In this document: piece after piece, positions 1,054-19,703 of the stretch
Layout of the letters: each line of letters starts with the position of its first letter
How positions within the stretch are numbered: position 1 is the first letter of the stretch
Virus record (IMG/VR): IMGVR_UViG_2778261252_000009
Span: 1-19,703 of that record
Strand: one strand, 5' to 3'
Source of the DNA: a virus
Taxonomy: Duplodnaviria > Heunggongvirae > Uroviricota > Caudoviricetes
Length of the DNA stretch: 19,703 bases
Position numbers and translations under genes: made by a program
The notes under the pieces: generated by a model
Databases searched by the model: none
Told to the model about the DNA's origin: nothing
What the model saw: the letters and a program-made list of their open reading frames with translations, nothing else

Positions 1054-1078
1054 TAAAAAGCCCTCATGTCAGAGGGCT
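1054..1078 (-). terminator. Putative intrinsic terminator or attenuator hairpin immediately upstream of the int start codon
   Basis: Minus strand reads AGCCCTC-TGACAT-GAGGGCT-TTTTTA-ATG: 7-bp stem, 6-nt loop, T-run. The GAGGG that would serve as the int Shine-Dalgarno lies in the 3' stem arm. Confidence 0.45.
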
Positions 1079-1126
1079 AAATTTAACTGTATGTTTGACC
1101 AGTGGTCAATGTATGTAAATATTAAA

Positions 1127-2896: not shown

Positions 2897-2939
2897 TTTA
2901 GACTCCTCCAGTAAGTATTTAAAAGTAATGTCTGCAATG

Positions 2940-3878
2940 TTATTGTATTGTTAAGATAATGCTGGCTATAATTTGAATATCCTCAATGGAACACTCAAAA
3001 TCCTTACTCCCACCAGAAACAAGAATTTTGTTCTTAGGTAAGCGAGTTAACTCTTTTAAAGATAACTCATTGTCAATTCCTACTAACCATTTTCCATCTC
3101 TAATTAGGTGAAATTCTTTATCACATATGACATGTTTTTCTCCATTGCTTACAAACATCAAGCTGCTAGTTTCTTGCTTCGGAAGTAGACACCGATCCAT
3201 GGATAAAAAACCTGACTCGACAAGCACGCCATTGACCAAATTGAACTTATTTAAAATTACAGTGTTTTCTTCTTGTGAACTATTTGGTGTTTCGATTCCT
3301 GTAACTAGCCAGGCGAGATCCGCTTTGGTTTCTAATGCGCATTTAATCACCCAATCCGCAGGGAAAGAATCTCGCATGTATCGTGTGGCTAATGTGCTTT
3401 TTGAAATACCAAGGTGGTCGGCTAAGGCTTGGCGGGTTTTAAACCCGTAAGCATTAACAATCCTCTCTATCGTGGCTTTTCCTCCGTTAGTAAGCTCAAT
3501 GTGATTCTCAATGCGGCGCTTAAAGGATGATTGATGAGCGTTGCTGTTAAACCCCTCATGTGGGACTGTTTCATCATGTTGTTCCACATAAGGGGGGAAA
3601 CTTTCTTCTGCATTGTTAGAACCAAAGGCCAGCCATTCTAGGGATGCGCCAGTTTCCATTGAACATATAACAACCCAATCAGCAGGGAAGGTATCGCGTG
3701 CATATCTATTAGCCATTGTGCTTTGTGAAATACCAAGATGCTTACAGAAGGCTTGGCGTGATTTGAAACCATAGGCCTTGAGTATCCTCTCAATGACTTT
3801 TTGCCCTCCACGATTCTGCATGACCATAGCTTTCAGACTATCTTCAATATGGCGAAATGTGATTTTTTGAGTTGACAT
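2940..3878 (-). CDS. cI: CI-like prophage repressor with tandemly duplicated N-terminal HTH domain
   Basis: 312 aa. Two copies of a ~62-aa motif (residues 25-86 and 133-194, IERI..AYGFK.RQA...HLGIS.ST.A.RY.RD.FPADWV..C..ET.A.L.WL..G), about 39 of 62 identical by hand alignment. Sits divergent from apl-cII in the 186 cI position. Confidence 0.7.
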   Translation of the reverse strand: MSTQKITFRHIEDSLKAMVMQNRGGQKVIERILKAYGFKSRQAFCKHLGISQSTMANRYARDTFPADWVVICSMETGASLEWLAFGSNNAEESFPPYVEQHDETVPHEGFNSNAHQSSFKRRIENHIELTNGGKATIERIVNAYGFKTRQALADHLGISKSTLATRYMRDSFPADWVIKCALETKADLAWLVTGIETPNSSQEENTVILNKFNLVNGVLVESGFLSMDRCLLPKQETSSLMFVSNGEKHVICDKEFHLIRDGKWLVGIDNELSLKELTRLPKNKILVSGGSKDFECSIEDIQIIASIILTIQ

Positions 3879-3965
3879 ATTCTTTATGTGAACCTATTCT
3901 CCGTTTTGTGATGTTTTGTCACGATTAATACCGGCTCACCACAAGCCAATAGGAGATGTTGCATC

Positions 3966-4187
3966 ATGACCCCTAACATTTCAATAACTCTGAATACGCC
4001 ACACGTCACAATTGAGCGTTATAGCGAACTTACTGGTCTTTCTATCGACACCATCAACGATATGCTGGCAGATGGTCGTATCCCTCGCCATCGCCTTCGG
4101 AAAGACAAGAAAAGAGAAAAGGTAATGATCAACCTTGCTGCTCTTACCGTTGATGCACTTACTGATTGCAATGTTGTATTCAACTAG
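3966..4187 (+). CDS. apl: Apl/Cox-like small HTH excisionase and regulator
   Basis: 73-aa ORF, first gene rightward of the switch region, RBS AGGAGA upstream; position equivalent to 186 apl. Confidence 0.55.
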
Positions 4188-4219
4188 TTCCATTTTGGGA
4201 TGTATCAGGAGTGTCGACT

Positions 4220-4729
4220 ATGTTTGATTACCAAGTTTCCAAACATCCACATTTTGATGAAGCCTGTCGTGCATTTGCATTGCGCCACAACTTGGTGCAA
4301 CTGGCAGAACGTGCAGGTATGAATGTGCAGATTCTGCGGAACAAGCTGAATCCAGCTCAACCTCATTTATTAACCGCACCAGAAATCTGGCTGCTTACCG
4401 ATCTGACTGAAGATTCAACGTTGGTAGATGGTTTTCTGGCACAGATTCACTGCCTGCCATGCGTACCAATTAATGAGGTGGCAAAAGAGAAACTGCCACA
4501 TTACGTCATGAGTGCAACCGCAGAGATCGGGCGTGTTGCTGCAGGTGCGGTATCTGGCGATGTAAAAACCAGTGCAGGTCGTCGTGATGCTATCAGCAGC
4601 ATTAACTCTGTAACACGACTGATGGCGTTGGCTGCTGTTTCATTGCAGGCCCGTTTACAGGCTAACCCTGCGATGGCGAGTGCAGTTGATACCGTGACTG
4701 GCCTCGGTGCTTCATTCGGTTTGCTGTGA
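4220..4729 (+). CDS. cII: CII-like transcriptional activator, phage 186 type
   Basis: 169 aa from ATG at 4220 with RBS AGGAGTG. N-terminus [19 protein letters not shown] matches my recollection of 186 CII, which is also 169 aa. Confidence 0.8.
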
Positions 4730-4736
4730 GGTGCTT

Positions 4737-5033
4737 ATGCTGACGAAAGAACCATCATTTGCATCGCTGCTGGTAAAACAAAGCCCGGCAATGCACTACG
4801 GTCACGGCTGGATCACAGGTGAGGATGGAAAACGCTGGCATCCATGTCATTCACAAGATGAATTGCTGTCTGAATTGACCACGAGGAAACGGAGAAAGTC
4901 CAAATGTATGCGGCAGAAAGTGAAGTGGTTTATCAGTTTCGTTACAGAGGGGAGAGTTATTCAGTACCTGAAGATGATTTGCTCTGTTGCTATCCGTCAT
5001 TGTCGGGCGATGGCAGTTACTTTTTCGCGTTAA
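4737..5033 (+). CDS. Hypothetical early protein, translationally coupled to cII
   Basis: ATG at 4737 with GAGG 5 nt upstream, 8 nt after the cII stop. Overlaps the next ORF by ~130 nt in another frame, so the true 3' end is uncertain. Confidence 0.4.
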   Translation: MLTKEPSFASLLVKQSPAMHYGHGWITGEDGKRWHPCHSQDELLSELTTRKRRKSKCMRQKVKWFISFVTEGRVIQYLKMICSVAIRHCRAMAVTFSR

Positions 5034-5128
5034 AGGATGGGACGTTTTTACGGGGAGAGCAGGTTAAAGAGACGATACGAAAAAATGTATCTCCTCTTGA
5101 GCGTTACCGTAAGAACAAAGAACGATAG
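4904..5128 (+). CDS. Hypothetical early protein
   Basis: 74-aa ORF with good RBS GGAGAAAG 5 nt upstream of ATG. Confidence 0.5.
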   Translation: MYAAESEVVYQFRYRGESYSVPEDDLLCCYPSLSGDGSYFFALKDGTFLRGEQVKETIRKNVSPLERYRKNKER

Positions 5129-5150
5129 CTGCGTTTGGGGGATATGAAGT

Positions 5151-5492
5151 ATGGCAATTAATGGCGCTGCAGCAACTGTTCCATTAAGCCCCGGTGAACG
5201 CCTGAATGGACTTAATCACATTGCGGAGTTAAGGGCGAAAGTTTTTGGCCTGAATATTGAGTCAGAGCTTGAGCGGTTTATTAAAGATATGCGTGATCCA
5301 CGGGATATCAATAATGAACAAAATAAACGGGCACTGGCTGCCATATTCTTTATGGCAAAAATTCCAGCTGAACGTCATAGCATCAGCATTAATGAGCTGA
5401 CCACTGACGAAAAGCGGGAGCTGATTAAAGCAATGAATCATTTTCGTGCAGTGGTGAGCTTATTTCCCAGACGGCTAACCATGCCGAATTAA
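5151..5492 (+). CDS. Hypothetical early-region protein
   Basis: 113-aa ORF, RBS GGGGGA upstream, same strand as the early operon. Confidence 0.5.
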   Translation: MAINGAAATVPLSPGERLNGLNHIAELRAKVFGLNIESELERFIKDMRDPRDINNEQNKRALAAIFFMAKIPAERHSISINELTTDEKRELIKAMNHFRAVVSLFPRRLTMPN

Positions 5493-5559
5493 CCAACTAA
5501 TGAAATTAATGGCGTAAACCCGCCGGGCATCCCTTTATCTAAATTCAGGAGAATTGATT

Positions 5560-5793
5560 ATGCGTAATATTGAAACCCTCACGACTAAAACCGGACCGGA
5601 TGACGCAGGGCTTAATATTTTACTGACAGAGGCTCGTCTGGAAGAACGCCGGGCAAGGGCTGAAGCAATGGCAGCTCGCCTTGATAGCCTGGCGTGTCAT
5701 ATCTCATCCCGTCAGCTAAACCACGTGGAAGCGGCAGAACTGCTGCGTGTGACTGCTGAAGCAATCCAGAACGAAGCGCAGGAGATCCACTAA
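5560..5793 (+). CDS. Hypothetical early-region protein
   Basis: ATG at 5560 with AGGAGA 7 nt upstream; its stop TAA overlaps the next ATG (TAATG). Confidence 0.5.
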   Translation: MRNIETLTTKTGPDDAGLNILLTEARLEERRARAEAMAARLDSLACHISSRQLNHVEAAELLRVTAEAIQNEAQEIH

Positions 5794-6020
5794 TGGCTGA
5801 TGCAATGGATCTCGTACAGCAGCGCGTTGAAGAAGAACGCCAGCGCCATATCCGTGCTGCCCGTGCCAAAACGCCGGGCGTGTCCCGCGTGCTTTGCGTT
5901 GAGTGTGAAGCGCCAATTCCGCCAGCACGCCGCCGTGCCATTCCGGGTGTGCAGCTTTGCATTACCTGTCAGGAAATCGCAGAGCTGAAAAGCAAACATT
6001 ACAACGGGGGTGCTGTATGA
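5793..6020 (+). CDS. TraR/DksA-type C4 zinc-finger protein
   Basis: 75 aa with CVECEAPIP...CITCQ (CxxC-N17-CxxC); P2-like phages carry such a gene upstream of A. Confidence 0.7.
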   Translation: MADAMDLVQQRVEEERQRHIRAARAKTPGVSRVLCVECEAPIPPARRRAIPGVQLCITCQEIAELKSKHYNGGAV

Positions 6021-6874
6021 GCACCATCCTGAAATGGGCGGGAAATAAAACCGCCGTAATGTCCGAACTGAAAAAACATCTTCCTGCTGGTCCGCGACTA
6101 GTTGAACCTTTCGCGGGTTCCTGTGCTGTGATGATGGAGACGGATTATCCCTGCTATCTGGTTGCGGATATTAATCCTGATTTAATCAACCTCTATAAAA
6201 AGGTTGCCGCTGATTGTGAATCGTTTATATCTCGCGCCAAAGTTTTATTTGAGATCGCAAACAGGGAGGTGGCTTATTACAACATAAGGCAGGAGTTTAA
6301 TTACTCAACTGAAATTACTGATTTCATGAAAGCGGTATATTTCCTGTATCTCAATCGTCACGGTTACCGTGGGTTATGTCGCTATAACAAGAGCGGGCAT
6401 TTCAACATTCCCTACGGTAATTATAAAAATCCGTATTTCCCTGAAAAAGAAATTCGCGCTTTTGCAGAAAAAGCCCAGCGAGCAACGTTTATCTGCGCCA
6501 GCTTTGATGAAACGCTGGCGATGTTGAAGGCGGGGGATGTGGTGTATTGCGATCCGCCTTATGACGGTACGTTTTCCGGCTATCACGCTGACGGCTTTAC
6601 TGAAGATGACCAGTATCACCTGGCATCCGTTCTTGAACATCGGTCATCAGAAGGACATCCGGTCATTGTTTCTAACAGTGACACATCCCTGATCCGTTCG
6701 CTGTATCGCAATTTTACTCACCACTATATCAAGGTAAAACGCAGCATCGGCGCAGCAGCTGGTGAGAGTAAATCAGCAACAGAAATCATTGCTGTTTCCG
6801 GGCCGCGCTGCTGGGTGGGATTTGATTATTCGCGTGGCGTGGATAGTTCTGCCGTGTACGGAGTACGTGCATGA
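6017..6874 (+). CDS. dam: DNA adenine methyltransferase, Dam family, with no adjacent restriction gene
   Basis: 285 aa. N-terminal LKWAGNK and FAGS motifs (AdoMet binding), catalytic DPPY ([10 protein letters not shown]), [15 protein letters not shown] similar to E. coli Dam. Start overlaps upstream stop (ATGA) and stop overlaps A start (ATGA). Confidence 0.9.
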
Positions 6875-9285
6875 GCCATGCCGATATGAGCAACTGCTGC
6901 GGCTTTAACGAGGCTGCCGCATCGTTCTCATGGAACAGCCCGAAAAAGGCCATTAACCCTTATCTGGACCCGGCGGAAGTTGCGCCGGTTTCTGCGCTTT
7001 CAAACCTGATCACTCTGTACGCTGCCGATAACGAGCAGGAACAACTGCGCCGCGAGGCACTGAGTGATCAGGTCTGGGAGCGTTATTTCTTTAATGAATC
7101 CCGTGATCCTGTCCAACGCGAAATAGAGCAGGATAAGCTCATTAGCCGGGCAAAGTTGGCGCATGAGCAGCAGCGTTTTAACCCGGACATGGTCATTCTG
7201 GCAGACGTCAGCGCCCAGCCCTCCCATATCAGCAAGCCGCTGATGCAACGTATTGAATACTTCAGCAGCCTGGGCAGGCCAAAGGCTTATTCCCGCTATT
7301 TACGTGAGACGATTAAGCCATGTCTGGAACGACTGGAGCATGTACGCGACAGCCAGCTATCTGCATCTTTTCGTTTTATGGCAAGCCATGTAGGGCTGGA
7401 CGGCCTGCTGATTCTGCCTGAAATGAGTCAGGATCAGGTGAAACGCCTGTCTACCCTTGTCGCTGCGCATATGAGCATGTGCCTTGATGCAGCTTGTGGT
7501 GATTTGTATGCCACCGATGACGTTAAGCCAGAAGAAATCCGCAAGACATGGGAAAAGGTGGCAGCGGAAACCCTGCGTCTGGATGTCATCCCGCCTGCGT
7601 TTGAGCAACTCCGTCGGAAAAGAAACCGCCGTAAACCCGTGCCCTATGAACTCATTCCGGGTTCGCTGGCGCGTATGTTGTGCGCCGACTGGTGGTACCG
7701 GAAATTATGGAAAATGCGTTGCGAATGGCGGGAAGAGCAGTTGCGTGCTGTCTGCCTGGTCAGCAAAAAAGCATCTCCCTATGTCAGCTATGAAGCCGTG
7801 ATGCATAAACGTGAGCAGCGCCGCAAGTCACTGGAGTTTTTCCGTTCTCATGAACTGGTGAACGAAGAGGGCGACACGCTGGATATGGAAGACGTGGTAA
7901 ACGCCAGCAGCAGCAACCCGGCGCACCGCCGCAATGAGATGATGGCCTGTGTTAAAGGTCTGGAGCTTATCGCGGAAATGCGCGGTGACTGCGCCGTTTT
8001 CTACACCATTACCTGTCCGTCACGTTTCCATTCCACGCTCAATAACGGCAGACCAAACCCAACCTGGACAAATGCGACGGTAAGACAAAGCAGCGATTAT
8101 CTGGTCGGCATGTTTGCTGCATTTCGTAAGGCGATGCACAAAGCCGGGTTGCGCTGGTATGGCGTGCGGGTGGCTGAGCCGCATCATGACGGTACAGTTC
8201 ACTGGCACCTGTTGTGTTTCATGCGCAAAAAAGACCGCCGCGCCATTACTGCATTGTTGCGTAAGTTTGCCATCCGTGAAGACCGCGAGGAACTGGGTAA
8301 TAACACTGGTCCACGCTTTAAATCTGAGCTGATAAACCCGCGCAAAGGAACGCCGACAAGCTACATCGCGAAATACATCAGTAAGAACATTGACGGGCGT
8401 GGTCTGGCTGGCGAGATCAGCAAGGAAACGGGTAAATCCCTGCGTGATAACGCTGAATACGTTAATGCCTGGGCGTCTCTGCATCGTGTTCAGCAATTCC
8501 GCTTCTTTGGTATTCCGGGACGTCAGGCTTACCGTGAACTTCGCTTGCTGGCTGGTCAGGCGGCAAGGCAACAGGGTGACAAAAAAGCAGGTGCGCCGGT
8601 ACTGGATAACCCGCGTCTTGATGCCATTCTGGCTGCTGCTGATGCTGGTTGTTTTGCCACCTACATCATGAAGCAGGGCGGCGTACTGGTTCCCCGCAAA
8701 TATCACCTCATCAGAACCGCTTATGAAATCAACGAAGAGCCAACCGCCTATGGCGATCACGGTATTCGTATTTATGGCATCTGGTCACCCATTGCAGAGG
8801 GCAAGATCTGCACTCATGCAGTGAAGTGGAAAATGGTTCGTAAGGCCGTTGACGTTCAGGAGGCGGCAGCCGACCAGGGCGCTTGCGCCCCTTGGACTCG
8901 TGGCAATAACTGTCCCCTTGCTGAAAATTTGAACCAACAAGGGAAAGACAAATCAGCTGATGGGGATACCAGAACGGATATCACCCGCATGGATGACAAG
9001 GAGTTGCACGATTACCTGCACAGAATGAGCAAAAAAGAGCGCCGGGAACTGGCAGAAAGATTACGCCTGGTTAAACCGAAACGGCGTAAAGACTACAAAC
9101 AGCGAATTACAGAGTATCAGCGTCAGCAGCTCGTCTATGAGCTGAAGTCCAGAGGATTTGATGGTAGCGAGAAAGAGGTCGATTTACTCCTTCGCGGCGG
9201 CAGTATTCCGTCAGGAGCAGGCCTGCGTATCTTCTATCGGAACCAGCGTTTGCAGGAAGATGATAAGTGGCGGGATCTGTATTAA
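6871..9285 (+). CDS. A: Rolling-circle replication initiation endonuclease, P2 gene A family
   Basis: 804 aa. HUH motif HWH at codons 444-446 (8200-8208) and paired catalytic tyrosines YIAKY at codons 498-502 (8362-8376), as in the phiX174 A / P2 A superfamily. Confidence 0.85.
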
Positions 9286-9377
9286 TTACGCGGGTTAACA
9301 ATTCGTGCTCTTAATAATACCAGGCATATCAGGCTGATGAACGTAAAAAAACGTTTTACATCAGTAAGATTATTATA

Positions 9378-9397
9378 TACTGTAAATATAAACAGTG
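9378..9397 (+). promoter_or_regulatory. LexA (SOS) box upstream of the tum/dinI-like module
   Basis: TACTGTAAATATAAACAGTG matches the CTGT-N8-ACAG consensus exactly (CTGT 9380-9383, ACAG 9392-9395), about 40 bp upstream of the ORF starting at 9438. Confidence 0.65.
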
Positions 9398-9437
9398 GTT
9401 ATGTATACAGTATTGCTTTGGTGTCATAGGAGGAAAG

Positions 9438-9626
9438 ATGCAGGACTATTTTTTGGAGTCTTTGAAGCTCCAGCGCATTGATTTTTTTCTTAAGCTTGTA
9501 GCGGCTAGTGAGTGTAGTGATGAAGAGAAGGGGCTGGCTCTGCAGTGGGTTTCTGAACTGACAGATGAACTCATGGCAAAAATCAGAACCCACGAATACA
9601 ACCGCTCAATGGATGTCATCAGCTGA
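9438..9626 (+). CDS. Small protein downstream of LexA box; possible Tum-like antirepressor component
   Basis: 62-aa ORF with RBS AGGAGG; function inferred from position only. Confidence 0.4.
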   Translation: MQDYFLESLKLQRIDFFLKLVAASECSDEEKGLALQWVSELTDELMAKIRTHEYNRSMDVIS

Positions 9627-9636
9627 GGTGACTTTT

Positions 9637-9870
9637 ATGCGCATTGAAATAATGATCGATAAAGAGCAGAAGATTAGCCAGTCTACACTGGACGCCCTTG
9701 AATCCGAGCTTTACCGCAATCTGCGCCCCCTGTATCCCAAAACGGTAATTCGTATCCGCAAAGGTAGCTCTAACGGTGTGGAACTGACCGGACTGCAACT
9801 GGACGAAGAAAGAAAACAAGTGATGAAAATTATGCAGAAGGTGTGGGAAGACGACAGCTGGCTGCATTAA
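9637..9870 (+). CDS. DinI-family protein
   Basis: 77 aa starting MRIEIMIDKEQ...LDALESELYRNLRPLYP...KIMQKVWEDDSW, resembling E. coli DinI (MRIEVTIAK...). RBS GAGG 8 nt upstream. Confidence 0.7.
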   Translation: MRIEIMIDKEQKISQSTLDALESELYRNLRPLYPKTVIRIRKGSSNGVELTGLQLDEERKQVMKIMQKVWEDDSWLH

Positions 9871-10073
9871 GAAACGTTGCTGGCGTCTGAACTTGCTTCT
9901 GGCGTCAGCAAGGTTGAACAACGAGCTGTGCGAGGCGTTAGCTCTGTGGTGCATGTCTATGCCGCATGAGATCGCATGATCGTTTGAGGATTGTTTTTGC
10001 TAAGGCCTGCCAGAACTGGCGGGCTTTTGCGTAGATCATGCAGGTGCATGAAAACCACTACATAAAGCGGGCA

Positions 10074-10099
10074 GGCGTGGCGGGGATACGAGCGCGCAC
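10074..10099. other. cos-like remnant (possible degenerate cohesive-end site)
   Basis: GGCGTGGCGGGGA matches the first 13 nt of the 186/P2 19-nt cohesive end as I recall it (GGCG[T/A]GGCGGGGAAAGCA[T/C]); the remaining 6 nt differ. Lies in a GC-rich non-coding stretch between the dinI-like gene and the cargo gene. Confidence 0.4.
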
Positions 10100-10218
10100 T
10101 TAAGGATAAATTGAAGTTGATTTAATTTTTCGACATGGATAATCTTAACTACGTATGATTATTGATAAAAAATAAACATAAAAAATTGTAGCGGATCTTA
10201 AAACTTATTAGGATTAGT

Positions 10219-11280
10219 ATGCTTAAAACAAATAAGGTATTTATTGACACACAAACGTACGTAAAGGCTGGTCTTCATTTTGAGGGGGTAGCATTTAAAG
10301 CTTTCCATGAATTATGTGCGAAAGGTGATTTAGTCTTAATTACAACTACAGTTGTAGAGAGAGAAGTAAAAGGTAAAATAGAGGAATCAATAAAGGATGC
10401 TCTGCAGGCTATAAACACAGTACAAAGAAAAGCTAGGCTTTTGAATAGTATTGATAATGGACCGCTCCATGGTTTTTTTCAGCAATTTAACGAACATGAA
10501 ATTCACGAAGCAGCACAAAAAGTTTTTGATGATTTTTTGAAAGGATGTCACGCCAAATTAGCTACAATAGAAGTGATAGATCTTAATGAGGTTTTAGATA
10601 AATACTTTGGCAAAGAACCACCATTTGGGCAAAATAAGAAAAAAAGTGAGTTTCCTGATGCAATCACTTTAGCTGCGGTAGAGCGATTTGTTAATGATGA
10701 AGATGTGTATATCATTTCTGAGGATAGTGACTTAAAAAATTATTGTGATGGTAAAAACAATCTTCATCAAATTGATTCACTTGATAAGTTTCTAGGTGAA
10801 TACAATACGCATACAAACGAATTAAGTAATAAATTGATGCAGTTTATCGAAAGCAAACGTGAAGACATAAGAGCGGACGTAATTGCCCAACTCAATGATG
10901 CCGATGGATATAACGTTTCAACTTGGGAAGACGCTGAATTGGATTCATTTGAAGTCGTCAATATTGATGACTTTGAACCATCAATAATTAAGATTAGCAA
11001 TAATTATTGTCTAGCGACCTTCTCTGTTTCTGTAGATTTTGAAGTTACTGTTTCTGGTCCAGACTTTAATAATGGGTATTGGGATAGCGAAGATAAAGTA
11101 ATGATTCCAATGGAGACAACCACACGAACTGAAGTTCAAGAGATTAGTTTCGATGTTGAAATTGAAGTTATGTATGAAATCGAGGATGGTGAATTAACAG
11201 ATATCGCATTTGATGTGAATATTGATAAGTTATCCCGAGGGATTGAGTTCTCTATTGAAGAAAATAATTTTGAATATTAA
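10219..11280 (+). CDS. Cargo protein with PIN-like N-terminal domain and acidic beta-rich C-terminal domain; candidate anti-phage or abortive-infection effector
   Basis: 353 aa. N-terminus KVFIDTQTY (Asp in first strand), later TLAAVERFVNDEDVYIISEDSDL resembling distal PIN acidic motifs. C-terminal half very D/E rich. Visibly AT-rich, flanked by an AT-rich upstream region and a hairpin terminator. Confidence 0.55.
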   Translation: MLKTNKVFIDTQTYVKAGLHFEGVAFKAFHELCAKGDLVLITTTVVEREVKGKIEESIKDALQAINTVQRKARLLNSIDNGPLHGFFQQFNEHEIHEAAQKVFDDFLKGCHAKLATIEVIDLNEVLDKYFGKEPPFGQNKKKSEFPDAITLAAVERFVNDEDVYIISEDSDLKNYCDGKNNLHQIDSLDKFLGEYNTHTNELSNKLMQFIESKREDIRADVIAQLNDADGYNVSTWEDAELDSFEVVNIDDFEPSIIKISNNYCLATFSVSVDFEVTVSGPDFNNGYWDSEDKVMIPMETTTRTEVQEISFDVEIEVMYEIEDGELTDIAFDVNIDKLSRGIEFSIEENNFEY

Positions 11281-11289
11281 TTCGTTCAT

Positions 11290-11320
11290 AACGGCATCAT
11301 TGTGATGCCGTTGGGTTTTA
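11290..11320 (+). terminator. Hairpin terminator between the convergent cargo gene and Q
   Basis: AACGGCATCA-TTG-TGATGCCGTT (10-bp perfect stem, 3-nt loop) followed by GGGTTTTA. Confidence 0.6.
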
Positions 11321-12343
11321 TAATGTATATATTTCAAAATTTATAATTTCATGACCAAGCCATCTGTTTATTTCCATGAATCTTTTTTGAAGTGGTAATA
11401 GTTCATTTCTTACGAAGACGCAGCTCGCCTTCTCCACATCACCAAAACCCCCAACATTATTCGGCAAAATTCCCATCATCTGAGGCGGTACGCGGTGTGC
11501 CGCCATCATGTCATCACGGCTGACGTTCTTGATGTTCAGAAATTCATCCTTCGCCGCGACTTCTGACAACGGGATGATTTGAAGCCCGTCCTTTTTGCCG
11601 TTAGGCGAGTACATAAACAGGTTGCGGAAGTTGCCAGGGCCTTTGGCGCTTTTCATCGCATTGCGGAGGTTGTTCACATCCTCCTGGTTCTGCGCGGCAT
11701 CGGTCATGTACATGATGAAGCCTGCATGGCTGCCGTTAATGTAATACTTCCGGCGGAACAGCGTGGCGGACTCGTTGAGCAGGGCTGACGGAATGGCAGA
11801 AAGATAACCTGGTAGGCCGTAGATCTCCTGGTTGATGTCAGGTTCCATCAGATGAAAAATGCTGCCTTTCGTGAACTGATACGGCTGGGTTGTCATACCG
11901 TATTGCACAAACCAGTAGGTATCCAGATCTAACCCGCGTCGGGTGTATTTTGCCAGAGCAGGCTCAAGGGCGATAACTTCACCGAAGCGGTTCGTGCGTT
12001 TCTCCAGGTAGGCGTTACCAAATACCAGATAGTCCTGCACAAAACGTGAAAAAGCCTGCTGGCTGAGCAGCGGGTGAGGGATGTAGGTACTGGTCAGAAT
12101 GTTGCATTTCACCGCAATTGGTGAGCTGTGATGCACGGCGGCGCGGAAGGTTCGTGCCAGTCCGTCAAAGCTGACGGGCGGCTCATACCAGCGATCCATC
12201 TGTACGCATTCCACATAGTCCAGCAGTTCACGGCGGTCCAGAACAGGAACGGGATCGCCAAAGCTGAATGCTTCGGCTGAAGTTTGGCTTTTATGCTTGA
12301 GCTGATTCGTCGCCGCAGCGCGGTTTTTCTTACTCTTTCCCAT
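11318..12343 (-). CDS. Q: Portal protein, P2 gpQ family
   Basis: About 341 aa (P2 Q is ~344 aa by my recollection); ATG at 12341-12343 overlaps the stop of the upstream terminase fragment; gene order P then Q as in P2. Confidence 0.85.
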   Translation of the reverse strand: MGKSKKNRAAATNQLKHKSQTSAEAFSFGDPVPVLDRRELLDYVECVQMDRWYEPPVSFDGLARTFRAAVHHSSPIAVKCNILTSTYIPHPLLSQQAFSRFVQDYLVFGNAYLEKRTNRFGEVIALEPALAKYTRRGLDLDTYWFVQYGMTTQPYQFTKGSIFHLMEPDINQEIYGLPGYLSAIPSALLNESATLFRRKYYINGSHAGFIMYMTDAAQNQEDVNNLRNAMKSAKGPGNFRNLFMYSPNGKKDGLQIIPLSEVAAKDEFLNIKNVSRDDMMAAHRVPPQMMGILPNNVGGFGDVEKASCVFVRNELLPLQKRFMEINRWLGHEIINFEIYTL

Positions 12344-13323
12344 CAAAAAATCTCCACAATATTGCTGGTATTGGCGGACTCGCCCTGCAGCGGTTCATTA
12401 AACAGTGCGTGCATTGTTGCCCAGGCCAGATCGGCGTGGCTGGCTTCTTCGCTGCGGCTGGCTTCATAGGTCGGGCGGTTGCCACTGGCGGTGGTGGCGC
12501 GACGGATTGCCATAAATGACTGCGCTATGTCGGTGTGTCCGGCGTCAAACTCCAGACGGCGGTGGCTGATAATGTCGTAGGCCTTGAGTACCAGGGCGTT
12601 TTTGACGTTGGGGTTGTAGACAAACTCCCGGACGGCAGGAAAAAACACTTTCACGTTCTCGTAAACCCCGTGACCAACGCCGGTTGAGTCGATGCCGATA
12701 TAGGTCACGTTGTACTGTTCGGTCAGTTTTTTGATGGCGTCAGCCTGGGCGCGAAAGTCCATCCCGCGCCACTGGTGACGCTCAAGAATGCGGAACTTGC
12801 CGCCCGGCACGGCTGGCGGTGCCACCACCACGCATCCGGCACTGTCGCCGTTCTGCGTACCTTTCGCCGGGTCATAACCGATCCACACTTCGCGCCAGCC
12901 AAACGGGCGCAGTGCCAGTGCATGAAAGTCGGTCCAGACTTCCCAGCTGTCCACCATGCACGCCTGCAGCTCGCTGAGCGGGAACACGGACGCGAGATCG
13001 TCCACGAACTCGCACATCAGCAGGTTCTGGTATTCGTCCGGGCTGTACTCCATGCGCAACTGGTCAAGGTCGAACAGGTTGCAGCCGCCGCGCACCGCAT
13101 CTTCCACGGTGACTATCTGGCGGTATTGCCCGTCTGCGCACAGCAGGCCGGGGGCCAGATTGCTGTGGGACAGGTCGATGTCCACCTTATCGGCTTTGTT
13201 GCGCCCACGGTTGAACAGCGCACCGGACCAGAACGGATACGGCAGCAGTAACTCGAACCAGCAACGCGTTGTCCTGGCTGGCTGGTGCACCACTGGCACT
13301 GCTGCGACGCGGGCTTGCTTCAT
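12343..13323 (-). pseudogene. P: Terminase large subunit (P2 gpP family), N-terminally truncated; only distal ATPase region plus nuclease domain retained
   Basis: 326-aa ORF with no Walker A; contains the RNase-H-like nuclease motif VWIGYDPAKG...D. P2 P is ~590 aa by my recollection. The ORF's 5' end overlaps the tape-measure fragment on the opposite strand. Confidence 0.75.
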
Positions 13324-14513
13324 CGGGCAATGCTGCGGGTTTACTTACTGCGCCGTTGTCGTCTTTGCGCCGCACGGCATCACTGACGGGAAATGTCCTG
13401 AAAACTGTAGCAGGTGCGCCGGTTGCACTTTTGCGGTCTGGATTATCCGGTTTACGTGCTGTTGCTGTGATGTTTATGAATCCTCTGGCGGTACTGCGCG
13501 GTGGACTGACCGCCGCAGGCACGGTGTTGCGAGTACTGGCATCTGGTCCACTGGCGATGCTGCGCGTTGCCCTGTATGCCATATCTGGTCTGTTAGGTGC
13601 TCTGCTCAGTCCGATAGGTCTTGTGGTTACTGCACTGGCAGGCGTGGCGCTGGTTGTCTGGAAATACTGGCAACCCATCACCGCATTTCTCGATGGCGTG
13701 GTGGAGGGATTCAAAGCGGCGGCAGGTCCCATCAGTGCTGCATTTGAACCACTTAAGCCTGTGTTTCAGTGGATTGGCGACAAAGTACAGGCGCTGTGGG
13801 GCTGGTTTACTGATCTGCTGACGCCCGTTAAGTCGACCTCTGCCGAACTGCAGAGCGCAGCGGCAATGGGGCGACGATTCGGGGAGGCACTGGCGGAAGG
13901 GCTGAATATGGTTATGCATCCGCTGGACTCCCTGAAATCTGGCGTTTCCTGGTTGCTGGATAAACTCGGCATTGTCAGTAAAGAGGCTGCAAAGGCGAAA
14001 CTGCCGGAAAGCGTGACGCGTCAGCAACCTGCGACGGTGAATGCAGACGGTAAAGTGATGATGCCATCGGGTGGTTTTCCATCATGGGGATATGGCTTTG
14101 CGGGGATGTATGACAGCGGCGGCTATATCCCGCGCGGGCAGTTTGGCATCGTCGGTGAAAACGGGCCGGAAATTGTTAACGGCCCGGCAAACGTGACCAG
14201 CCGGAGAAATACAGCTGCACTGGCTGCCGTTGTTGCCGGAATGATGGGCGTTGCTGCCGCGCCTGCAGAGCTTCCACCGTTGCATCCTTTGGCACTTCCC
14301 GCGAAAGGCGGCGAAGCGATGGTGAGTCGTGCAGCCACTGTGCCGCCCGTTCAACGGATTGAGGCACCGACGCAGATCATCATTCAGACGCAGCCAGGAC
14401 AAAGTGCGCAGGATATTGCGTGGGAGGTGGCCCGCCAGCTTGATGAACGTGAACGCAGGCTGAAGGCAAAAGCCAGGAGTAACTACAGCGATCAGGGGGG
14501 ATACGACGCATGA
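13269..14513 (+). pseudogene. T: Tail tape measure protein (P2 gpT family), C-terminal fragment
   Basis: 414-aa ORF, Ala/Leu/Gly-rich with GENGPEIV near the C-terminus, followed by U and D as in P2 (T is ~815 aa in P2 by my recollection). The 5' boundary of genuine T sequence is uncertain. Confidence 0.7.
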
Positions 14514-14995
14514 TGATGGTGCTGGGATTGTACGTGTTTATGCTGCGCACCGTGCCGTATCAGGAACTGCAGTATCAACGCAGCTGGCGACATGCGGCTA
14601 ACAGCCGGGTAAATCGTCGTCCGTCCACGCAGTTTCTGGGACCGGACAACGACATGCTGACGCTTTCCGGTGTTCTTATGCCGGAGATAACAGGCGGCAG
14701 GCTGTCGTTGCTGGCACTTGAGCAGATGGCAGAACAGGGGAAAGCATGGCCCCTGATTGAAGGCAGCGGCACGATTTACGGCATGTATGTGATTGAGGGA
14801 CTGAATCAGACTAAAACGGAGTTTTTCCGCGACGGTATGCCGCGCCGGATTGAGTTCACCCTGTCGCTCAAACGAGTGGATGAATCCCTGTCCGATATGT
14901 TCGGTGATCTCAGTGCGCAACTGAATAATCTGCAGGAAACGGCAACATCTGCTTTAAGCGATATCAGTAAAACGGTGGGAGGGCTGCTGTCGTGA
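14510..14995 (+). CDS. U: Tail protein, P2 gpU family
   Basis: 161 aa; start overlaps T stop (ATGA); synteny T-U-D. Confidence 0.8.
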   Translation: MMMVLGLYVFMLRTVPYQELQYQRSWRHAANSRVNRRPSTQFLGPDNDMLTLSGVLMPEITGGRLSLLALEQMAEQGKAWPLIEGSGTIYGMYVIEGLNQTKTEFFRDGMPRRIEFTLSLKRVDESLSDMFGDLSAQLNNLQETATSALSDISKTVGGLLS

Positions 14996-16092
14996 ATTTC
15001 AGCTCTGAGCTGCTTAACAAGGGCAACAAAACTCCCGCATTCAGCATCAGTATTGAGGGCAGGGATATCACTACTGTCCTGGATAATCGCCTGATGAGTC
15101 TGACGTTGACGGACAATAGGGGCTTTGAAGCGGACCAGCTTGATCTGGAGCTGGACGACGCCGACGGAAAAATCGTGCTGCCGCGCCGTGGTGCGGTCAT
15201 TACGCTGGCGCTGGGCTGGAAGGGGCAGCCGCTTTTCCCGAAAGGGGCATTCACGGTGGACGAGATTGAACACACTGGCGCACCGGACCGCCTGACTATC
15301 CGGGCGCGAAGTGCTGATTTTCGGGAAACGCTGAATACCCGCCGTGAAAAATCGTGGCATAAGACCACCGTCGGGGAAGTGGTGAAGGAAATAGCTGCGC
15401 GTCACAAACTGAAGATGGCACTGGGTAAAGACCTGTCGGATAAACCCGTGGATCATATAGACCAGACTAATGAGAGTGACGGCAGTTTTCTGATGCGGCT
15501 GGCGCGACAGTACGGTGCCATCGCGTCGGTGAAAAATGGCAATCTGTTATTCATCCGGCAGGGGCAGGGCAAAAGCGCCACTGGTAAACCACTGCCGGTG
15601 ATCACTATCACACGGAAGGACGGCGACAGTCACCGCTTTACCCTGGCAGATCGCGGAGCTTACACGGGCGTCATTGCCAGCTGGTTGCATACCCGCGAAC
15701 CCGCGAAGAAAGAAAGCACCACGGTGAAGCGTAAGCGCAGGACTAAGAAGCAGAAGAAAGAGCCGGAAGCGAAGCAGGGCGATTACCTGGTGGGTACGGA
15801 TGAAAACGTGCTGGTACTTAATCGCACTTATGCCAACCGGAGCAACGCCGAACGGGCAGCGAAAATGCAGTGGGAACGCCTGCAACGCGGCGTTGCATCA
15901 TTCTCGCTACAACTGGCGGAAGGGCGGGCAGATCTCTACACAGAAATGCCTGTGAAGGTCAGTGGCTTTAAACAGCCGATAGATGATGCGGAATGGACCA
16001 TTACGACTCTGACGCATACCGTCAGCCCGGATAACGGTTTTACGACCAGTCTGGAGCTTGAAGTGAGGATTGATGATTTCGAAATGGAATGA
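14992..16092 (+). CDS. D: Tail protein, P2 gpD family
   Basis: 366 aa, GTG start overlapping U stop (GTGA), RBS GGGAGGG; last gene of the tail operon before ogr. Confidence 0.8.
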   Translation: MNFSSELLNKGNKTPAFSISIEGRDITTVLDNRLMSLTLTDNRGFEADQLDLELDDADGKIVLPRRGAVITLALGWKGQPLFPKGAFTVDEIEHTGAPDRLTIRARSADFRETLNTRREKSWHKTTVGEVVKEIAARHKLKMALGKDLSDKPVDHIDQTNESDGSFLMRLARQYGAIASVKNGNLLFIRQGQGKSATGKPLPVITITRKDGDSHRFTLADRGAYTGVIASWLHTREPAKKESTTVKRKRRTKKQKKEPEAKQGDYLVGTDENVLVLNRTYANRSNAERAAKMQWERLQRGVASFSLQLAEGRADLYTEMPVKVSGFKQPIDDAEWTITTLTHTVSPDNGFTTSLELEVRIDDFEME

Positions 16093-16182
16093 TTCTTCGC
16101 AATGGAGAACTTTTAAGTTTGCAAAATGGAATAATGCGGTATCATTATTGTGAATTTAGCAAAAATGGGGAGAACTCGAAAA

Positions 16183-16401
16183 ATGATGATTTGCCCACTG
16201 TGTGGAAGTGCCGCCCATACTCGCAGCAGTTTTCAGGTATCTTCATTGACCAAAGAGCGTTACAACCAGTGCCAGAACATTAACTGCAGCCATACTTTTG
16301 TTACCCATGAAACTTTTGTTCGTTCGATTGCAACGCCAAAAGAGTCAAATCCGGTTCAGCCGCATCCAATGAAATCAGGACAGGTGGCGCTCTCTCTTTG
16401 A
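16183..16401 (+). CDS. ogr: Ogr/Delta-type zinc-finger late-gene activator
   Basis: 72 aa from ATG 16183 with CPLCGSAAH...CQNINCSHTF, matching the P2 Ogr pattern CPLC...H...C..NC and its 72-aa length. Confidence 0.8.
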   Translation: MMICPLCGSAAHTRSSFQVSSLTKERYNQCQNINCSHTFVTHETFVRSIATPKESNPVQPHPMKSGQVALSL

Positions 16402-16423
16402 CGCTGCCGCCATTTTGTCGCCA
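16402..16423. repeat. Putative attR core (right copy of direct repeat), immediately after the ogr stop
   Basis: CGCTGCCGCCATTTTGTCGCCA, 21 of 22 identical to 19-40. Confidence 0.6.
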
Positions 16424-16481
16424 TCGTTAAAAAACAGTGTTTCTAACATCATGATTTTAAACAGCTTAAATTTCAGGCAAC

Positions 16482-16524
16482 AAAAAACCCATCAACCTTG
16501 AACCGAAATGGCGGGGTTGATGGG
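16482..16524 (-). terminator. Intrinsic terminator of ybjL
   Basis: CCCATCAACC (16488-16497) pairs with GGTTGATGGG (16515-16524) around a 17-nt loop; on the minus strand the hairpin is followed by TTTTTT. Confidence 0.7.
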
Positions 16525-16636
16525 CTCCACAAAATGGGGACATCAAAGAAAAGCAGTGGCACTAATTAAGACTGATGCCCTGCGGAAAAGTTCTGCGGTT
16601 GTGCAAAAAAATTTCATTTTCAGGGCAACTTCAGTT

Positions 16637-18322
16637 TTATCCTAATCCTGGCCATACCATGACGATGATTGTCCCTGCCAGCGTCAGCAGGACGTTGGCG
16701 ATTGCGTAGGTGCCCGCATAGCCCAGCGCAGGGATGTTACTGCGAGCTGTATCACTGATGATCTCCATTGCCGGCGCGCAGGTGCGTGCGCCCATCATTG
16801 CGCCGAACAACAGTGCGCGGTTCATTCGCAATACATAAGCACCGAACAAGAAACAGATAACCACGGGCACAAGACTGACAATTAATCCGGCAATCAACAT
16901 CTGACCGCCAATCGCGCCCAGGCCGTTATTAATACCGCTACCGGCGCTCAGACCAACGCCTGCCATAAACACCATCAAGCCGAACTCTTTCACCATGCTT
17001 AATGCACCTTGCGGAATGTAACCGAAGGTCGGGTGGTTAGCACGCATAAAGCCCAGCATAATTCCGGCGAATAACAACCCGGCAGCGTTCCCCATGCCGA
17101 AACTGAATGTGCTGAACTGGAAGGTGATCATCCCGATCATCAGCCCAATAACAAAGAAGGCGCAGAATGCCAGCAGGTCAGTGACCTGGCTGTGAATCGA
17201 GATAAAGCCGATGCGATCGGCGATGGTTTTTACGCGGCGGGCATCGCCGCTGACTTGTAAAACGTCACCTTTGTTAAGCACGACGTTGTCATCTATCGGC
17301 ATCTCAATCTGGCTACGAATGACGCGGTTAAGGAAGCAACCGTGATCGGTCAACTTCAGTTGTGCGAGACGTTTACCTACAGCGTTATGGTTTTTAACGA
17401 CCACTTCTTCAGTGACGATACGCATGTCGAGAAGGTCACGATCGAAAACTTCTTTACCGTTACGGAAGCTGGGATCGAGTCGGGCATGGGCGTCGGGATA
17501 GCCTACCAACGCTATTTCATCGCCCATTTGTAGCACGGCATCACCGTCTGGATTTGCCAGAATCCCGTTACGTCGAATACGTTCAATGTAGCAGCCGGTT
17601 TGTCGATAAATACCCAGTTCACGCAGATTTTTGCCGTCGGTCCAGGCCACCAGTTCCGGGCCGACGCGATAGGCGCGGATCACCGGTAAATAAACCTTAC
17701 GGTTGGCATCAGTGTCCAGGCCACGTTCGCGGGCGATTTGCTGGGCGCTGGTCTGTAAGTCCTGATGCTGCAATTTCGGCAAGTAACGCGCACCAACAAT
17801 CAAACTCACCAGACCGATTAAATAGGTTAAGGCATACCCGAGGCTCAGATTATCCAGTGCCAGTGAGAGCTGCCTGCTTTCCATGCCGGAATGACGCAGT
17901 GTATCGCCAGCACCGACCAGAACCGGTGTCGACGTCATAGAGCCTGCTAACATACCGGCCGTCAGGCCAATATCCCAGCCAAACAGCTTACCTAACCCTA
18001 AGGCGATCACCAGCGCACTGCCAACCATCACCAGTGCTAACATTAGGTAATTTTTCCCATCGCGAAAAAAAATGGAAAAAAAGTTCGGTCCGGCTTCGAC
18101 CCCGACGCAGAAAATAAACAGCATAAAGCCAAGATTAAGCGCATCGGTGTTAATGCTGAAATGTTGTTGGCCTAATAACAGCGATACGACTAAAACGCCA
18201 ATGGAATTACCCAGTTGGATCGAACCAAGTCGTAACTTTCCGAGACATAGCCCAAGCGCGAGGACCACAAATAATAACAGAATGTAATTCCCATTTAACA
18301 ATTCGGCGACGTTTATATTCAC
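16637..18322 (-). CDS. ybjL: Putative transport protein YbjL (two TrkA-C domains flanked by membrane domains)
   Basis: 561 aa; N-terminus [34 protein letters not shown] matches E. coli YbjL as I recall it. Confidence 0.93.
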
Positions 18323-18591
18323 GGAGGCTAACTTCTTGTTTACTAGTAAGCTGTTGAAAGAAATGGTAATTTACGATAATGTTTTTTACCAGAATTCAGG
18401 GCGCAGATTCATTCAGCGCACCTAAACGATAGTAAAGTAACAATATATTTTACTAGTGTAATCACATTAGGTATCAACGGCTATATGAATTGCGTTGGCC
18501 TATATTAGCATGGAATGCGAAGCGGCTTTATCTTACTGAACGCCACACTGGCGAAAAATGTGTTCGATAGACGCAGTGTCAGGAGGAACGA

Positions 18592-18969
18592 GTGAAACAT
18601 AAACAACGTTGGGCGGGGGCAATCTGCTGTTTTGTCCTCTTCATTGTGGTGTGCCTTTTTCTGGCGACGCACATGAAAGGCGCTTTTCGGGCTGCCGGGC
18701 ATCCTGAAATCGGCTTGCTATTTTTCATTCTTCCTGGAGCAGTCGCCAGCTTCTTTTCACAGCGTAGAGAAGTCCTGAAACCTCTGTTTGGCGCAATGCT
18801 GGCGGCACCCTGTTCGATGCTCATTATGCGGCTGTTTTTTTCACCGACGCGCTCATTCTGGCAAGAGCTGGCATGGTTACTAAGCGCGGTGTTCTGGTGT
18901 GCGCTGGGGGCACTGTGTTTCTTATTTATCAGTAGTTTGTTTAAACCACAGCACAGAAAAAATCAGTAA
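18592..18969 (+). CDS. ybjM: Inner membrane protein YbjM
   Basis: 125 aa, GTG start with AGGAGG 5 nt upstream; hydrophobic; position between ybjL and grxA as in E. coli. Confidence 0.88.
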   Translation: MKHKQRWAGAICCFVLFIVVCLFLATHMKGAFRAAGHPEIGLLFFILPGAVASFFSQRREVLKPLFGAMLAAPCSMLIMRLFFSPTRSFWQELAWLLSAVFWCALGALCFLFISSLFKPQHRKNQ

Positions 18970-18992
18970 AGCCCTCAACGCGAGGGCTTGTC
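18969..18992. terminator. Bidirectional hairpin terminator between convergent ybjM and grxA
   Basis: AAGCCCTC-AACGC-GAGGGCTT directly after the ybjM stop and before the grxA stop. Confidence 0.6.
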
Positions 18993-18998
18993 AGACGA

Positions 18999-19256
18999 TC
19001 AGGCGTCCAGATTTTCTTTCACCCATGCAGCAAAATCGGTATAGCCGCCGATATGTTGCTGATCGACAAAAATCTGCGGCACGGTTTCTACGGGTTTACC
19101 TGCCTTTTGTTGTAGATCTTCTTTAGTGATCCCTTCCGCACGAATATCTACATACTGATACTGAAAATCATCGCGTTCATTGCTCAATTTCTCAGCCAGA
19201 TCTTTTGCACGCACACAGTAAGGGCAACCCGAACGACCAAAAATAACGGTTTGCAT
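18999..19256 (-). CDS. grxA: Glutaredoxin 1
   Basis: 85 aa from MQTVIFGRSGCPYCVRAK with the CPYC active site; ATG at 19254-19256. Confidence 0.93.
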   Translation of the reverse strand: MQTVIFGRSGCPYCVRAKDLAEKLSNERDDFQYQYVDIRAEGITKEDLQQKAGKPVETVPQIFVDQQHIGGYTDFAAWVKENLDA

Positions 19257-19415
19257 TATTTCTCTCCTCATAGATTTATGCCTGTAATGATCACGCTAAA
19301 ATGTATTCGCTGAAAGTAGGTTTAACCTGTTGCATTAATTGCTAAAAGCTATAACTGTTAAACACAATACAGTGAAAAGTTTTAGACTGAAGGCTCACTT
19401 TGCAGAGGGAAGCGT

Positions 19416-19703
19416 ATGCGCGCGATCGGTAAATTGCCTAAAGGCGTGTTGATACTGGAATTTATCGGAATGATGCTACTGGCGGTGGCGCTGCTGTCGG
19501 TAAGCGACTCCCTGTCGCTGCCTGAGCCATTTTCTCGGCCAGAAGTGCAGATTCTGATGATTTTTCTCGGTGTTTTGCTCATGCTTCCCGCTGCGGTGGT
19601 GGTTATTCTTCAGGTGGCAAAACGTCTTGCCCCACAGCTGATGAACCGTCCACCGCAATATTCACGTTCAGAAAGAGAAAAAGATAATGACGCCAACCAT
19701 TGA
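19416..19703 (+). CDS. ybjC: Small membrane protein YbjC
   Basis: 95-aa ORF ending at the window edge with TGA; hydrophobic segments; synteny with grxA. Confidence 0.85.
   Translation: MRAIGKLPKGVLILEFIGMMLLAVALLSVSDSLSLPEPFSRPEVQILMIFLGVLLMLPAAVVVILQVAKRLAPQLMNRPPQYSRSEREKDNDANH

Follow-up and report, generated by a model that had tools for sequence, protein, structure and literature searches.

The stretch of DNA analysed here (in the following called the window) comprises 19,703 nucleotides (nt), positions 1 to 19,703 of the IMG/VR virus record IMGVR_UViG_2778261252_000009, and represents a P2-like prophage (Peduoviridae) which lies between rcdA and ybjL on the chromosome of Escherichia coli. 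In it, the remnant of the gene for the large terminase subunit (P) and the remnant of the tape-measure gene (T) meet head to head, and the DNA which lies between P and T in intact relatives is gone; this arrangement is very probably the scar of an illegitimate, homology-independent deletion. The gene layout, deduced from a listing of open reading frames (ORFs) and from Pfam, NCBIfam and PADLOC scans of the window (Table 1), follows the order known from P2, with Q-P (leftward) at the one side and T-U-D-ogr-att at the other.

Nucleotide identity is 95-96% (94-97% across the regions named below) both to Klebsiella phage 4LV2017 (NC_047818; Elveevirus) and to the prophage of E. coli ESBL 15 (NZ_CP041678), the latter being an intact relative at the identical rcdA/ybjL site. 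The similarity covers int, the early region, A, Q, the 3' parts of P and T, U, D, ogr and attR in the same gene order, and both relatives are collinear with the window except for the deletion and for accessory loci. In a megablast search against phage genomes the matches were P2-like Klebsiella phages of approximately 96% identity, which never spanned the entire query. An origin from Klebsiella was rejected all the same, as the host flank (ybjL, ybjM, grxA and ybjC at the right of the element) and every exact match are from E. coli, which bears out the host proposed in the first-pass annotation. Outside the window, 88 nt before its first position, lies the attL core which matches the attR core of Table 1; the element is thus 16,580 bp long, which is nearly exactly half of its intact relatives (33.4-33.6 kb).

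The deletion junction between P and T

Collinearity with phage 4LV2017 is broken at a single point: window positions 11385-13239 correspond to phage positions 12991-14845, and 13238-16592 to 30186-33540, which places the breakpoints in the phage at 14845/30186 with 15,340 bp gone. In the ESBL 15 prophage locus they lie at 20501/37537, and 17,035 bp are gone. The missing segment is 46-48% of a 33.5-35.6 kb genome, in good agreement with the earlier proposal that roughly half of a P2-sized genome had been removed. Followed base by base, the window agrees with the P-side parent up to ...GAACGGATA (position 13239) and with the T-side parent from TACGGCAGC... (position 13238) onwards; the parental sequences at this point are ...GAACGGA-TA-AGCAC on the P side and ...CTTCCGT-TA-CGGCAG on the T side, so that a microhomology of 2 nt is common to both. 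Alignment of the window with both parents revealed no insertion sequence (IS), no extended repeat and no filler DNA at the junction.

Both genes flanking the junction are truncated at their 5' ends (P' and T'), as had been predicted. In a full-length relative, P encodes 588 amino acids (aa) with the domains Terminase_5 (residues 11-68), Terminase_6N (162-382) and Terminase_6C (410-571). By tblastn, residues 291-588 are kept in the window (99.7% identity), and in the ORF as called (12343-13323, minus strand, 326 aa) Pfam recognises a complete Terminase_6C nuclease domain, whereas Terminase_6N is matched only at profile positions 143-214 of 215. What is left of P thus comprises the C-terminal end of the ATPase domain and the complete RNaseH-like nuclease domain; missing are Terminase_5 and the more N-terminal stretch of the ATPase, consistent with the first-pass description of an ORF retaining only the nuclease end. 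In the RefSeq annotation of the identical sequence this fragment is a pseudogene, "incomplete; missing N-terminus". The neighbouring portal gene Q is intact; tblastn aligned residues 1-341 of 345 with 95.9% identity.

Full-length T encodes 1025 aa with a PhageMin_Tail domain at 246-457. What remains on the opposite strand is the C-terminal part only, as stated in the first-pass annotation and borne out by DNA alignment and by tblastn, which itself aligned T residues 629-1025 (97.5% identity). The native start is missing from this remnant. Read in frame, TTG at 13269 is the first codon resembling a start, and ATG at 13470 comes next; the ORF as called runs from 13269 to 14513 (plus strand, 414 aa), and gene callers choose 13470-14513 (347 aa). 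RefSeq lists this fragment, too, as a pseudogene missing its N-terminus.

The overlap of the two ORFs at 13269-13323 had been pointed out in the first-pass annotation. A junction between P and T does exist and the overlap is a correct result of ORF calling; the overlap zone is wholly T-derived DNA, and the junction lies at 13238/13239, 30 nt to its left. Since the DNA from 13240 to 13323 stems from T and the frame of P merely runs on into it, the overlap is a by-product of mechanical ORF calling. This run-on of 28 codons has no obvious ribosome-binding site and is not terminase sequence. For annotation it follows that the 326-aa ORF and the 347/414-aa ORF are pseudogene fragments rather than new proteins; recognising the element as a defective P2-like prophage accounts for the head-to-head position of the P and T fragments.

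Lost are the 5' part of P, the genes O to E/E' and the 5' 60% of T. The first-pass annotation had listed the capsid, lysis and tail genes as missing, and indeed in tblastn searches of the whole window no match was obtained for O, N, M, L, X, holin, lysozyme, lysA-like, lysB, R and S, nor for V, W, J, I, H, G, the invertase, FI, FII and E; the missing genes are thus not found elsewhere within the element either. The ESBL 15 relative has an invertible fibre segment and an invertase; the ancestral invertase and second fibre cassette, if present, are lost as well.

Table 1. Features of the window, their coordinates and the evidence for their assignment
Feature	Position	Strand	Basis and remarks
Integrase, left prophage end	1-1053	-	NCBIfam tyrosine-recombinase; homology to 4LV2017; RefSeq "phage integrase"
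Old-family ATP-dependent nuclease (AAA ATPase and TOPRIM), full length	1127-2896	-	PADLOC Old, E=9e-235
CI-type repressor, 312 aa, followed by early genes	2940-3878	-	
D12-class adenine methylase	5957-6874		
Replication gene A, intact, 804 aa, followed by DinI-like gene	6871-9285	+	Pfam Phage_GPA, E=2e-127
Homologue of ori nick site, inside A	8885-8910		alignment to annotated P2 nick site at 29892
Probable cos, GGCGTGGCGGGGATACGAG	10074-10092	+	candidate by alignment with P2 cos GGCGAGGCGGGGAAAGCAC
PIN_12-domain protein, 353 aa	10219-11280	+	GC content 0.34-0.37; variable locus between cos and Q
Portal gene Q, intact, 341 aa	11318-12343	-	Pfam Phage_portal; same call in identical contigs; its late promoter pP, ahead of P, falls in the deleted DNA
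Terminase large-subunit gene P, remnant, 897 nt, residues 291-588 and stop	12343-13239	-	alignment, Pfam, tblastn
Deletion junction	13238-13239		dinucleotide TA common to both parents; three-way alignment with 4LV2017 and ESBL 15 left/right parents
Run-on of the P frame, 28 codons (MKQARVAAVPVVHQPARTTRCWFELLLP), antisense T DNA up to ATG	13240-13323	-	ORF translation; P homology stops at 13239
Tape-measure gene T, remnant, 3' 1275 nt, codons 602-1025 of 1025 and stop	13239-14513	+	DNA alignment, open frame
Tail gene U, intact, 161 aa	14510-14995	+	Pfam Phage_P2_GpU; tblastn full length, 98.8%; F-operon promoter gone
Tail/late-control gene D, intact, 366 aa	14992-16092	+	Pfam Phage_GPD; tblastn full length, 98.4%; F-operon promoter gone
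Late-gene activator gene ogr, intact, 72 aa	16183-16401	+	Pfam Ogr_Delta on identical gene
attR core, CAGGCAACAAAAAACCCAT	16474-16492	+	4LV2017 attR annotation transferred by alignment; direct repeat found in VE-V10-F

Origin of the deletion and recurrent breakpoints in P

In the scenario favoured here, a break in P (after ...GAACGGATA, between codons 290 and 291) would have been joined to a break in codon 601 of T by way of the shared TA. Because the microhomology is only 2 nt long and neither a repeat nor an IS is present at the junction, the repair should have proceeded by microhomology end-joining or template switching and not by site-specific or homologous recombination. That a single deletion event is responsible, as proposed in the first-pass annotation, is likely, and one junction as such cannot distinguish one event from nested ones.

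The ybjL-site prophage has suffered other deletions elsewhere. Eight further deletion alleles were found by searches seeded with the window junction, and their breakpoints are given in ESBL 15 locus coordinates: D2 (20974/37049, P'/T'), CPE35 (21431/37634, with P intact), EC27 (21062/40276, P'/D'), JS316 (20310/36710, P'/T'), WS4437A-1 (left end at about 20819, P'/FII'), ECCWS199 (20501/35129, P'/FII', plus a second deletion), Z1323CEC0018 together with nine other genomes (about 20499/40063, P'/D') and E423 (20501/29725, P'/I, plus two more deletions). All alleles lose part or all of the late region from O to T and keep the early region and Q; ogr was intact in every allele examined. The extra deletions in ECCWS199 and E423 (E'/D' at 35685/39635, Q'/P fragment at 19106/20435 and FII'/D' at 35211/39598) show that the late region at this site is eroded step by step.

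In four of the nine alleles the left endpoint falls within 2 nt of the same position in the 1,767-nt gene P, and the right partners all differ (I, FII, T and D, at ESBL 15 locus positions 29725, 35129, 37537 and 40063). The junctions read ...GAACGGATA/CGGCAG in the window, ...GAACGGATA/CGCGAAG in ECCWS199 (P'/FII', that is, ...GGATA/CGCGAAG), ...GAACGGATA/TCCGTAT in E423 and ...GAACGGA/AAGCGAAG in Z1323CEC0018; three of the four use the same TA and the last one ends 2 nt short. The left breaks of the other five are spread over 20310, about 20819, 20974, 21062 and 21431. The shared site corresponds to window positions 13237-13239, ESBL 15 locus 20499-20501, ECCWS199 locus 6501-6503 and E423 locus 7053, and in further extracted loci to 6499 (L011) and about 8020 (L016). 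A 120-nt probe across it found a continuous match in 1,157 of 1,173 E. coli records, and 14 of the 16 exceptions are these four alleles. Over the 897 nt of P', the window has nine differences to the intact ESBL 15 allele, 13 to ECCWS199 and 32 to Z1323CEC0018; the carriers' P' sequences are not most closely related among themselves, which favours independent events. Beyond E. coli, the terminase gene of a P2-like prophage of Erwinia rhapontici (approximately 70% protein identity) is cut short 4 nt away from this site, where it is fused to the lysis region. By a rough estimate, the chance of such a clustering of breakpoints is 1e-4 or less, a value to be read with some ascertainment bias in mind, given how the alleles were found.

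No observation speaks against a deletion as such, and two circumstances weigh against a plain illegitimate deletion in one step. The left breakpoint recurs in independent alleles, so that the break may be non-random, which ordinary illegitimate recombination does not explain; and a single event is unproven, as a junction of the ECCWS199 type could give rise to that of the window by a second deletion using a TACG microhomology.

The recurrence of the left endpoint, the use of the same TA with different right partners and the case of Erwinia make it conceivable, though less likely than not, that a sequence-specific break or strand-transfer activity acts at ...GAACGGA/TA in P, with the free end being joined at TA or at a few matching bases. 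The further step, namely to regard this position as a nucleotide-precise recurrent break site, at which an unrecognised site-specific DNA break or one-ended strand-transfer process repeatedly disables P2-like prophages through one-sided loss of the late region, is suggested here only tentatively. Should it be a true hot spot of breakage, it would offer a concrete and experimentally accessible route of prophage inactivation. Apart from the bias in sampling, this explanation suffers from the fact that no enzyme or motif emerged among the candidates compared (invertase sites, gpA nick site and att core) and that a stable hairpin, a Chi site or an IS remnant is missing at the hot spot.

The candidates considered for such an activity, or for a structural cause, fared as follows. 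Quasi-sites of the invertase were dismissed because the native crossover sites of the intact relative, TTCTCACATACC-TT-GGTTTGGGAGAA (TT/AA centre, Hin/Cin-type consensus), are unlike any breakpoint. A pseudo-ori used by gpA in rolling-circle replication shows no resemblance to the hot spot either, the ori nick sequence being GCGCCCCTTG/GACTCGTGG, and the att core CAGGCAACAAAAAACCCAT, which would mark a secondary site of the integrase, is unlike the breakpoints in P, T, FII, I and D; a pair of breakpoints both resembling a crossover site, as expected for deletion by a site-specific recombinase, was not found. Resection limited by Chi was rejected as no Chi lies near the retained end, where only GCTGGTGC with one mismatch occurs at 13281-13288. 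Folding energies at the breakpoints were no better than those of shuffled controls (z-scores of -0.5 to +0.95), which disposes of hairpins or cruciforms, and adjacent deletion mediated by an IS was discarded as neither IS sequence nor extra bases are present at any junction. Self-targeting by a type I-E system of clustered regularly interspaced short palindromic repeats (CRISPR) was considered because an AAG protospacer-adjacent motif overlaps the site; by reasoning only, it was set aside, as Cas3 would degrade the retained side. Finally, a perfect direct repeat of 13 nt, ACCAGAACGGATA, was noted, with one copy in gene A (8968-8980), downstream of the ori nick homologue by 74 nt, and the other (13227-13239) ending exactly at the junction. 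The anchored chance of this is approximately 6e-4, yet neither the E423 nor the ESBL 15 lineage has the repeat conserved in its A gene, and it was treated as a coincidence.

Less probable is a series of nested deletions anchored at one left end, for example P'/I' or P'/FII' first, followed by a loss up to T. Such a history would account for P' ending at the same nucleotide when joined to I (E423) or FII (ECCWS199) and 2 nt shorter when joined to D (Z1323CEC0018); both ECCWS199 and E423 carry more than one deletion, and the direct route has only TA as microhomology, less than the TACG which the ECCWS199 junction has in common with the site in T. It is made improbable by the P' alleles of the carriers, which form no clade, and by the need for a second deletion to start exactly at the first junction, which itself would have to be explained; moreover, the Z1323CEC0018 junction is not derivable from that of ECCWS199 by simple microhomology. 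The illegitimate deletion directly between P and T is retained as the preferred explanation of the window.

A protein-database search for truncated P, which was clustered and is thus unsuitable for a census of breakpoints, returned many fusion or truncation ORFs at other positions and one case near the hot spot, that of Erwinia. Among the other ORFs is one of 465 aa from E. coli (P0005), in which the N-terminal approximately 130 aa of the tail protein U are fused in frame to the C-terminal part of terminase P; as U and P are encoded on opposite strands, the fusion implies an inversion junction in another E. coli prophage.

Consequences, retained genes and related elements

The P2 record places the Ogr-dependent activator sites at pP/pO between P and O, at pV upstream of V and at pF upstream of FI. 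By position, all four late promoters (pP, pO, pV and pF) would have fallen within the deleted DNA, which probably leaves Q, P', T', U and D as transcriptionally orphaned passengers. Two weak sigma-70-like matches were all that a promoter scan of the region produced, and shuffled controls gave more. A promoter-like site was noted on the minus strand at 13471-13442, and since the loss of expression is deduced from promoter positions in P2, read-through or weak promoters may still serve the remaining genes. A further promoter-like site was seen in the scan ahead of ogr (16118-16145). A full set of head, lysis and tail genes, a full-length P and, judged by position, the late promoters, all of which a functional prophage would have, are absent; the element should accordingly be unable to build capsids or tails, to package its DNA or to lyse the cell.

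Cryptic remnants of P2 which retain ogr are carried by E. coli K-12 (D'-ogr) and by E. coli B. Defective P2-like elements with conserved defence genes have been described (PMC13586616), and the window resembles these in that mobility or morphogenesis is lost and accessory or defence loci and ogr are intact. In contrast to the known defective remnants, which are terminal remnants or scattered pseudogenes, it has suffered a clean internal deletion and has kept both ends, its replication gene and cos. On the whole it is a defective prophage of the ordinary kind, already annotated as two pseudogenes in public records, and the recurrent breakpoint in the terminase gene is the only surprise.

With satellites of the P4 type the element shares an integrase, immunity, its own replication, cos, an activator of the Ogr/Delta type and a variable defence locus adjacent to cos; in contrast to these it uses P2 gpA and not the alpha primase, and the portal gene, U and D remain as passengers. 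The P4 markers alpha primase-helicase, sid, psu, delta and epsilon are absent from the Pfam lists of the identical locus, a statement to which no dedicated search with satellite hidden Markov models contributed. Because of gpA replication and the absence of P4 markers it is not considered a P4-type satellite, nor is it a tailocin, because the sheath, tube and baseplate genes FI, FII, V, W, J and I gave no tblastn match.

The half size of the element raises the question of whether it might be mobilised in a satellite-like, helper-dependent manner, with two copies filling a P2-size head if a related helper supplied the particles; int, CI, A with the ori homologue, cos and ogr are intact, and its 16,580 bp compare with 33.5 kb in relatives. 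The same junction is, in addition, found next to a different immunity region and cargo in the E. coli strain VE-V11-M (see below). That a dimer would fit the P2-size head is speculative. Little weight is given to it because the other alleles at the site differ widely in size, so that no size constraint is visible, and because all carriers sit at the one rcdA/ybjL site, which fits vertical descent and homologous recombination; no Sid, Psu or other capsid-redirecting gene appears in the Pfam lists of the called genes. Dependence on a helper is very improbable.

In P2-like phages, the interval from A to Q adjacent to cos harbours variable defence loci (PMC9122126). Compared with 4LV2017 and the ESBL 15 prophage, the window lacks the central 15.3-17.0 kb, and it has Old next to int and PIN_12 next to cos, where 4LV2017 has a retron-type pair. 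The PIN_12-domain protein had no match in PADLOC or NCBIfam and may represent an uncharacterised defence gene; a PIN-domain gene of the same length occupies this locus in Z1323CEC0018, which has a different deletion allele. The old gene adjoins the integrase gene, and at that position other genes are found in 4LV2017, in the ESBL 15 prophage and in VE-V11-M. The CI repressor is about twice as long as that of relatives (168-189 aa), and 4LV2017 has the same long form. The CI gene is similar to itself internally (window positions 3328-3470 compared with phage positions 3618-3760, approximately 70% identity), which suggests a tandem duplication of a repressor module.

Occurrence and later history

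At least 24 contigs (32 index blocks) encode the 326-aa ORF spanning the junction without a single residue changed; among them are the complete genomes AP027971 (strain VE-V10-F) and AP027978 (VE-V11-M) and the Logan assemblies SRR6438316 and SRR9914188. In every carrier found, the element occupies the same site adjoining ybjL. The contigs of both Logan assemblies match the window exactly, and VE-V10-F differs from it by one base and by an IS2 in the methylase gene (locus positions 8585-9813). A 1-kb query across the junction matched both complete genomes with 100% identity. Among 5,426 complete E. coli genomes, approximately 1,258 contain both halves of this query, normally in two separate places, and these evidently harbour intact or differently arranged prophages; the halves are fused as in the window in VE-V10-F and VE-V11-M only. 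Each of these two strains has one matching place and therefore no second closely related copy of P and T. That the junction is an artefact of assembly or scaffolding, collapsing an intact prophage, is a general possibility for short-read assemblies, which is excluded here because two complete genomes and independent Logan assemblies from different sequencing runs all show the identical junction and because P and T, sharing only TA, offer no repeat that would cause a collapse.

On each side of the junction 500 nt are 100% identical to intact prophages (those of D5 and ESBL 15 for the left side, those of elppa10 and STS63-2-E for the right), and no decay since the deletion is visible, both remnant frames being open; as judged from this, the deletion appears to be recent. 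VE-V11-M has the same junction, and its right half departs from that of the window at just 6 of 8,280 nt, whereas the left part (12067-20981 of the extracted locus, compared with window 1-10100) is 1.2% divergent, encodes a short CI and YdcA instead of the long CI and Old, and has a Hypoth_Ymh gene in place of the PIN gene. With the same junction accompanied by different cargo and immunity, an exchange of DNA must be assumed: apparently, once the deletion had occurred, the defective element underwent recombination with another P2-like genome, or homologous recombination moved the junction segment. The retention of Old, PIN, immunity, replication, cos and ogr, together with the swap of cargo in one carrier, bears on the question raised for defective P2 elements of whether they are stabilised defence islands or still exchange defence genes (PMC13586616).

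Two observations concern host genes. In VE-V10-F, rimK contains an internal stop (locus positions 24232-25134). Loss of nfsA is a known route to nitrofuran resistance, and both Logan assemblies whose sequence equals that of the window have nfsA broken up into two ORFs (locus positions 2915-3637).

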